DNA of 64,000 nt from Anaerolineae bacterium (GTDB lineage Bacteria; Chloroflexota; Anaerolineae; UBA1429), in contig OY776562.1 of NCBI GenBank assembly GCA_963675785.1, positions 960,001 to 1,024,000 of the forward strand. Reading direction: 5' to 3'. Positions within the stretch are counted from its first letter, which is position 1. Each line of letters begins with the position of its first letter. Position numbers and translations under genes: made by a program. Positions 37,846-38,139 of the stretch are shown here, piece by piece. Under the pieces are notes generated by a model. That model had not been told where the DNA came from. It ran no database searches and was given only the letters and a program-made list of their open reading frames with translations.

Positions 37846-37874
37846 TTGACATAGATAGGGCCTTATGCTAACAT
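37846..37874 (+). promoter_or_regulatory. Sigma70 promoter of the ncRNA
   Basis: TTGACA-N17-TAACAT with extended TG; predicted TSS near 37881. Confidence 0.75.
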
Positions 37875-37880
37875 AATGTT

Positions 37881-38096
37881 GCAGGGTCCAGAGAGATTGA
37901 TGGAACTCGGACAACGACCTAGGGATCAATGAAGCGGAAGCGGGGACAGGTAAAACTGGAACCGTGAGCCAGAGGTAAATCCAGCGCAAACTGGTGGGAA
38001 ACTGGCAGGCGAAACCCGAATTCAAGGAATAAGGAATCGCAACCGTAGAAGGAATTTTAGGTGAGTGACGAGATAACAGGTCACTTTGGATCCTGC
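37881..38096 (+). ncRNA. Structured ~216-nt ncRNA, raiA-motif-like core
   Basis: 13-bp closing helix 37881-37893/38084-38096, nested helices, own promoter, no credible ORF. Confidence 0.7.
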
Positions 38097-38106
38097 CCTT
38101 TTGTGC

Positions 38107-38139
38107 AAAAAAACGGGGCCGACGAAAGTCGGCCCCGTT
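38107..38139. terminator. Terminator hairpin (T run on the minus strand)
   Basis: aacggggccgac-gaaa-gtcggccccgtt. Confidence 0.85.

Follow-up and report, generated by a model that had tools for sequence, protein, structure and literature searches.

The window analysed here is a stretch of 64,000 nucleotides from an Anaerolineae bacterium (contig OY776562.1, positions 960,001 to 1,024,000), and the locus of interest in it is a gap of 380 nt between two convergent genes, namely a hybrid histidine kinase/receiver gene on the + strand that ends at 37769 and an NAD-dependent epimerase-family gene on the - strand that ends at 38150. Within this gap we place an RNA of 216 nt at 37881-38096 (+), on the basis of its fold, of full-length matches of a structure model in relatives and of contigs from RNA libraries. 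The RNA is preceded by a sigma-70-type promoter at 37846-37874 (+), which consists of the -35 element TTGACA (37846-37851), a 17-nt spacer and the extended -10 element TGcTAACAT (37866-37874); the predicted RNA start is G37881, 7 nt past the -10 element. The promoter (TTGACA-17-TAACAT with TG) matches 10 of 12 consensus positions and is the sole promoter-like site of the gap in a consensus scan. Such a simple scan finds about 0.9 comparable sites per shuffle of the region, and consequently the site alone means little; its weight comes from its conservation in the homologues. No + strand open reading frame of at least 40 aa lies between the promoter and 38138. A preceding sequence-only reading of this DNA had described the 380-nt gap between convergent genes, the promoter and the lack of a + strand gene that could use it, and our gene ends, promoter scan and search for reading frames agree with it.

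The two ends of the RNA are joined in a helix, P1, and 2 nt past this helix there is a U-run at 38099-38102 (+). It is followed by a 12-bp GC-rich hairpin (38112-38139) with a T-run on the - strand, whose primary role is to terminate the convergent - strand gene and which may also act as a back-up stop for the RNA. The opposite strand contains an open reading frame of 70 aa with a TTG start (37813-38025 (-)), antisense to the RNA and without a Pfam match; the most likely cause of this frame is the pyrimidine-rich composition of the antisense strand.

The predicted structure is built from a terminal module and a branched interior. P1 comprises 13 bp (37881-37893/38084-38096), and A14 (37894) faces A38083 in an A/A mismatch that separates P1 from the 4-bp helix P1b. 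The segment that follows (37895-37904) holds the 5' strand of P1b, GAUU (37895-37898), and the junction word GAUG (37899-37902), and is part of the family word GAGAGRUUGAUG. On the other side, the 3' terminal word A-GGUC-A-CUUUGGAUCCUGC (38078-38096) contains the P1b strand (38079-38082), the mismatched A (38083) and the P1 strand (38084-38096). The next helices in the RNAfold structure are P2, with its 5' strand at 37906-37909 and 37912-37913, and P3, with its 5' strand at 37917-37924 and 37926-37927; their 3' strands lie together in 38052-38072 (P3 at 38052-38053 and 38055-38062, P2 at 38066-38067 and 38069-38072). P4 (37934-37937/38043-38046) closes a three-way junction of P5 (37940-37943/37962-37965 and 37947-37949/37956-37958, loop GUAAAA), P6 (37968-37972/38002-38006 and 37981-37984/37991-37994, loop CGCAAA) and P7 (38009-38012/38037-38040 with inner pairs, loop AAG). 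The loops GUAAAA and CGCAAA are GNRA-like. Most of the helices had been drawn in the sequence-only reading: the 13-bp end helix and the helices 37917-37927/38052-38062, 37968-37972/38002-38006 and 37981-37984/37991-37994 are all present in the minimum free energy fold. Its 9-bp helix 37934-37942/38038-38046 is retained in the outer 4 bp (37934-37937/38043-38046) and given up in the remainder, where 37940-37943 pairs with 37962-37965 instead, which is the version retained in relatives.

The fold of the + strand has a free energy of -74.3 kcal/mol (z = -4.9), and none of 200 shuffled sequences folds as well; the reverse complement reaches z = -1.75. This contrast between the strands is in keeping with a + strand RNA that has many G-U pairs and purines, the A+G content being 65% in the window RNA and 62% on average in the family. 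The sequence-only reading had also counted 11 GGA motifs. The count is correct, and compared with 7.2 +/- 2.1 in shuffled sequences the motif is not clearly enriched, 119 of 2000 mononucleotide shuffles reaching 11.

Comparison with catalogued RNAs relied on the 4227 families of Rfam 15. At gathering thresholds the whole window yields nothing but one tRNA gene (46169-46241 (+), 59.1 bits); at E <= 10 the core of the RNA is unmatched, and the gap gives only weak terminator-type matches at about 38046-38200. Nor does any family match the RNA positions in 16 scanned loci with relatives at E <= 5 or <= 1. The models of Y RNA and YrlA have no match at the locus. Since the canonical 6S RNA (G000:C1:2011488-2011651, 68.9 bits), the large SRP RNA (2179699-2179960, 169.6 bits) and the RNase P RNA (2638071-2638442, 315.1 bits) are all found elsewhere in the same genome, the window RNA is no housekeeping RNA that has been displaced. 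By eye, a reading of UUGAUGA as a kink-turn or C/D box was also considered and dropped, the aligned members being without a CUGA-type partner on the 3' strand. A full-text literature search, limited to main texts, found no description of the RNA, and 'Anaerolinea' does not occur in the search listing of RNA-discovery papers. We conclude that the window RNA is a member of an undescribed and uncatalogued RNA class, where novelty is judged by Rfam 15 and the full-text literature search.

A BLAST search with the window RNA against 60 relatives gave no match because the relatives are too diverged, and a structure model is needed to find them. All model work is based on R1, a covariance model derived from the window RNA alone with the promoter excluded. 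R1 matches over its full length in five genomes belonging to the window's GTDB family (44.1, 37.3, 36.1, 35.3 and 18.1 bits), and on public loci it identifies 31 further places besides the window (18.1-44.4 bits). The relatives found without use of the promoter all carry TTGACA-N14-TGnTAnnnT 6-7 nt before the RNA start, and in the five R1-found relatives a U-run directly follows the last paired base. BLAST with the copy of a relative detected RNAs in two genomes (G020 and G033) that the R1 genome search had missed, and consequently the R1 tallies are underestimates and unfit as estimates of prevalence. Among the copies from this search are two members in tandem, separated by 110 nt, in one complete genome, and a second type of paralogue.

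The family was collected with a pattern composed of the promoter and the 5' word (GAGRGRTYGA required), which was scanned over three collections. The pattern occurs at 43 loci in species-representative genomes, 35 of which are titled Chloroflexota, Anaerolineae or Anaerolineales, and at 60 loci in metagenomes. Matches were accepted as members if P1 complementarity was at least 9/10 and the TCACYY word was present, which left 91 instances representing 71 different RNAs, whose lengths span 214-929 nt and in most cases lie in the range 240-310 nt; 24 matches were rejected and 8 were left out as cut by contig ends. The two viral matches are not members and are read as a ribosome-binding site followed by a start codon, as are several of the metagenome matches. 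Seven loci from Firmicutes or Patescibacteria are without P1 closure and are not members either, and one of them, a Pseudoflavonifractor locus (L029:256-310 (-)), lies just upstream of a 16S rRNA gene and is a look-alike of the rRNA promoter/leader type. Two metagenome-assembled genomes with different phylum labels, L053 (candidate division WS1) and L044 (Chloroflexota), contain identical 305-nt members, and probably one of the two bins holds a foreign contig; except for the WS1 copy, every member comes from a record with a Chloroflexota-type title.

The distribution of the family was surveyed in 401 genomes of the class. The strict pattern occurs in the window's genome and in 7 of the 15 other genomes of its GTDB family (f1), and in none of the 385 genomes of 61 other families; the reversed pattern, used as a control, has no match in the same 401 genomes. 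A promoter-free pattern made of both terminal words matches the window's genome and 6 of the 15 f1 genomes, and adds a full member in G014 and a member in G005 that is recognised by its 3' end only and is apparently cut by a contig end. The only matches of the promoter-free pattern outside f1, in three genomes of one genus (family f28), have neither P1 complementarity nor the promoter and are not members. Among the genomes searched, members are found only in this one GTDB family of Anaerolineae, a lineage known here mainly from metagenome-assembled genomes.

Covariation strongly supports the branched fold. In the R1-fitted alignment of 32 members, which leans towards the structure of the model, 92.0% of the cells hold standard pairs compared with 69.4% after shuffling, none of 500 shuffles attaining 92.0%, and the covariation score is 0.375, compared with 0.150 for shuffled alignments and 0.038-0.090 when pairing partners are slid. 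Both sides change in 54 of the 63 pairs of this alignment, including every pair of P2 and P3, and the helices are paired in 99.3% (P1), 90.1% (helix 2) and 85.4% (helix 3) of cases. The results for P1 from a MAFFT alignment and those from a subgroup of long forms are independent of this leaning. When 36 members are aligned with MAFFT, RNAalifold returns P1, P1b and the pairs that close P5, and changes on both sides are seen at P1 pairs 4-9 in 17, 14, 6, 6, 7 and 16 of the 36 sequences. Ten long forms aligned without the model predict P1, P1b, P2, P3, P4, the three-way junction P5-P6-P7 and P8, with two to five pair types at many pairs; apart from P8, this architecture is the RNAfold structure of the window copy.

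What the members have in common is a constant frame, and what differs is the interior. All members possess the promoter, P1, the A/A mismatch, the 4-bp P1b and the words GAGAGRUUGAUG and AGRUCACUUG, where the invariance of the promoter and of GAGRGRTYGA in the 71 members is partly by construction as both were required by the pattern. The 3' consensus A-G-R-U-C-A-C-U-U-G is retained in 67-71 of the 71 members; this word was absent from the scan pattern, but part of it was used in the filter. At the mismatch, all 71 of 71 members have A as the 3' base, and the 5' base (A14) is A in 56/71 and G in 15/71. Several features that were never a search criterion recur as well: T is found at +3 to +6 of the U-run in 55-57 of 71 members, with at least 4 T within the first 8 nt in 56/71; an A-tract upstream of the -35 element, at about -44 to -41, has A in 49-60 of 71; and a second stable hairpin past the U-run is present in 65 of 70 members according to a crude fold test (<= -10 kcal/mol). 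The family start is a purine, in the context RCA. The window copy displays the whole set of family characters, that is, the promoter, the RCA start, a P1 of at least 10 bp, GAG-A-GRUU-GAUG opposite A-GRUC-A-CUU and the U-run after P1.

Inside this frame most members have P2-P8, and the window copy has P2-P7. The P8 hairpin, GGAG-AAGACA-CUCC followed by AAAAACGA, is highly conserved and present in most long forms; it is missing in the window copy and the other short forms, so that it does not characterise the family as a whole. Other types of interior include an unrelated GC-rich form of 215 nt, a hairpin form of 147 nt and expanded forms of 409-929 nt, and the 147-nt copy and the 215-nt type have only the terminal module in common. 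The collections searched contain no close relative of the window's own interior type, and for this reason P7 of the window copy rests on few cells of the alignment. The expanded members with the same terminal module are L057 (from 6415 downwards, 454 nt), L035 (409 nt) and L060 (929 nt); in L057 an internal AAAGGUCC word is accompanied by a pair of P8-like hairpins, an arrangement that looks like a fusion of two tandem copies.

In several genomes there are 2-4 diverged copies, some of them in tandem. The window's genome itself has a probable second copy of the same family outside the window (G000:C1:1157682-1157828 (+), 147 nt). Its promoter reads TTGACA-N17-TACTAT, it carries the terminal words GAGAGGUUGAUGG and CAGGUCACUUG, its P1 has a single bulge, and it possesses a U-run and a strong terminator hairpin; in its interior it shows no relation to the window copy. 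Tandem pairs of diverged members, 110-1000 nt apart and each with its own promoter, are seen at L017/L026 (in G020), L047, L037 and L119, and in genus g21 two paralogue types are retained in all three species looked at. The neighbouring genes differ from locus to locus: a kinase and an epimerase flank the window copy, and a methyltransferase, a glycosyltransferase, an amidohydrolase, a PLP enzyme and a flavodoxin are found elsewhere. An all-against-all comparison of 1410 neighbouring open reading frames contains no cluster represented at more than 7 of about 70 loci, and no conserved neighbour that would point to a partner protein was seen at these loci. As neighbour genes are not conserved, a cis-regulatory role and a dedicated adjacent partner gene are both disfavoured.

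Part of the region 37700-38300 is present in 20 public sequencing runs. Three DNA-type runs contain all sampled words, and four RNA-labelled runs from four studies contain one short contig each (182-212 nt). Three of these contigs correspond to 37896-38096 (201 nt), 37908-38096 (190 nt) and 37890-38071 (182 nt), and the fourth is 212 nt long, of which 37901-38025 fits. The first two of these, which come from different studies, both end precisely on the last base of P1, 38096. The RNA runs have no contig on 37700-37889 or 38099-38300 or on the flanking genes, where contigs cannot prove absence. Assembled contigs give no level, strand or true ends, and one of the four RNA runs (X12) may be DNA; the contigs fit a discrete RNA with a mature 3' end flush with P1, and we regard them as supportive, not conclusive. 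No Rfam 15 family lies on the core at E <= 10, covarying homologues exist in Anaerolineae, and four RNA-labelled runs contain contigs confined to 37890-38096; these results support the undescribed RNA class that the sequence-only reading had offered as one of its identities.

The evidence shows that 37881-38096 (+) is an RNA gene in its own right, conserved, structured and set among varied neighbours in the family. We consider it rather probable that this short-form member is transcribed independently and that its product is stable and acts in trans, in which case it would serve as an abundant ribonucleoprotein scaffold or decoy and not as a cis regulator. Transcription would begin at G37881 and the transcript would stop or be trimmed at P1 and the U-run, giving the mature end C38096, and P1 would shield both ends of the RNA. 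The near-invariant terminal module (P1, the A/A mismatch, P1b and the GAUG junction) may be the recognition site of a lineage-specific partner, most likely a protein, and the variable interior, with its three-way junction and GNRA-like loops and with member lengths of 147 to 929 nt in the family, may do the work or carry the cargo. The customary RNA-binding partners were not found, since a six-frame search of the genome has no match to CsrA (PF02599) at E <= 0.01, Ro/TROVE (PF05731) has no match in the genome and an Hfq gene was not found in it; for the same reason the RNA may point to a novel RNA-binding system. On the wider proposal our judgement is evenly balanced, namely that the family is a new class of bacterial structured RNA in which a near-invariant 'cap', made up of the promoter, the end-to-end helix with its A/A mismatch and the GAUG junction, frames a freely evolving interior of 147-929 nt, with several paralogues per genome, as a bacterial counterpart of eukaryotic families such as Y or vault RNAs that works with a lineage-specific partner or as an RNA-only assembly. 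Y RNAs occur as several paralogues, sometimes adjacent; their two ends form a conserved terminal stem, interrupted by a conserved irregularity, around an interior that varies, and they have a 3' U-run. The likeness of the new family to Y RNAs and to YrlA with Ro (Rsr) in these respects would be one of functional analogy and not of membership, considering that the genome has no TROVE/Ro gene, that no Rfam model matches and that the conserved stem has another sequence.

The rival explanations differ mainly in what they make of the variable interior. An RNA-only machine, in which an ornate RNA needs no dedicated protein to fold and perhaps to form multimers or act as a catalyst, as has been suggested for raiA, OLE, ROOL and GOLLD, would account for the purine-rich composition, the GNRA-like and conserved internal loops, the modular growth of the interior to 409-929 nt within the same terminal helix and the classical chaperone genes not found in the genome. 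We nevertheless think it unlikely. The interior is not conserved family-wide, and the 147-nt copy and the 215-nt type share the terminal module only, which fits poorly with a single catalytic core, and no tertiary contact or pseudoknot has been demonstrated. The family does resemble OLE, ROOL and GOLLD in being purine-rich, many-helixed and lineage-restricted and, in its large forms, in size, but the loci scanned have no Rfam match to them and most members are 215-310 nt long. It is also decidedly unlikely, in our estimation, that the promoter and terminal helix are an expression and stability cassette of a family of base-pairing regulatory sRNAs, whose variable interior loops pair with different mRNAs. 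Diverged and partly tandem paralogues are typical of sRNA families, and constant ends around a variable interior and a 3' U-run are in keeping with such a function; however, the interior evolves by compensatory change that preserves its helices rather than a single-stranded seed, a length of 250-930 nt is large for seed-type sRNAs, and the genome appears to be without Hfq.

The sequence-only reading had also offered a divergent raiA relative, which we now regard as very improbable. The five words quoted in it all stand at their positions, their agreement with raiA being that reader's suggestion, and the RNA is like raiA in its size of about 200 nt and in being stand-alone, highly structured and probably abundant. 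The covariance model tells otherwise, in that RF03072 has no match at 37750-38200 at E <= 10 and none at the RNA positions of the 16 scanned loci with relatives, and its top scores genome-wide, both away from this locus, are 12.9 and 12.0 bits where the cut-off is 101.3. According to the raiA study (PMC10861870), raiA is single-copy per chromosome and is carried mainly by Bacillota and Actinomycetota, with few, if any, genes in Anaerolineae. The raiA architecture of P1-P8 with two pseudoknots and a set of highly conserved nucleotides is represented in our comparison by the covariance model. The new family, by comparison, often has several copies per genome, turned up in a single Anaerolineae family only, and is conserved mainly in its terminal helix and not in a core. 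The other suggestions of the sequence-only reading, a CsrB/RsmY-type protein sponge or a 6S-like RNA, here a second one that binds RNA polymerase, fare still worse, and we would be surprised if either were correct. Repeated GGA-containing stretches (11 in 216 nt) and a strongly expressed stand-alone RNA would suit a sponge, and a strong promoter with paired 5' and 3' ends on an abundant stable RNA would suit a 6S-like molecule; against this, the genome search found no gene for CsrA, the GGA motif shows no clear enrichment, and the helices are held by covariation in place of the repeated short hairpins of CsrB/RsmY, whereas 6S RNA is a rod with a central bubble and usually one main copy, the window RNA has a branched junction and the genome has its own canonical 6S RNA. 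RF00013 and the Csr/Rsm families have no match at the locus at E <= 10. Scarcely any credence, finally, is due to the reading that there is no functional RNA gene here and that the locus is a chance fold, a decayed mobile element or a 3' UTR/terminator region of a neighbour. The RNA has no assigned function and the 70-aa frame lies across it on the - strand, but covariation, promoter and 3' word are conserved across 71 members in varied contexts, the contigs of the RNA libraries do not reach beyond the RNA, viral contigs yielded no member, and the frame has no Pfam match and lies on a pyrimidine-rich strand, on which open frames would be expected from composition.

Anaerolineae are abundant in digesters, sludge, sediments and aquifers, and their RNA biology is almost unknown. 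An orphan RNA class with strong covariation, RNA-library support, paralogues and a design of constant frame and variable interior invites a search for its partner, and the RNA family is at the same time a clean marker for one family of Anaerolineae. Structured elements of other kinds were seen near individual members. In one metagenome-assembled genome a cobalamin riboswitch (L056:5049-5200, 68.5 bits) lies about 700 nt downstream of a member, and at L067:4190-5150, about 1.5 kb upstream of another, there is an array of repeated hairpins with many weak matches to microRNA precursors on both strands.
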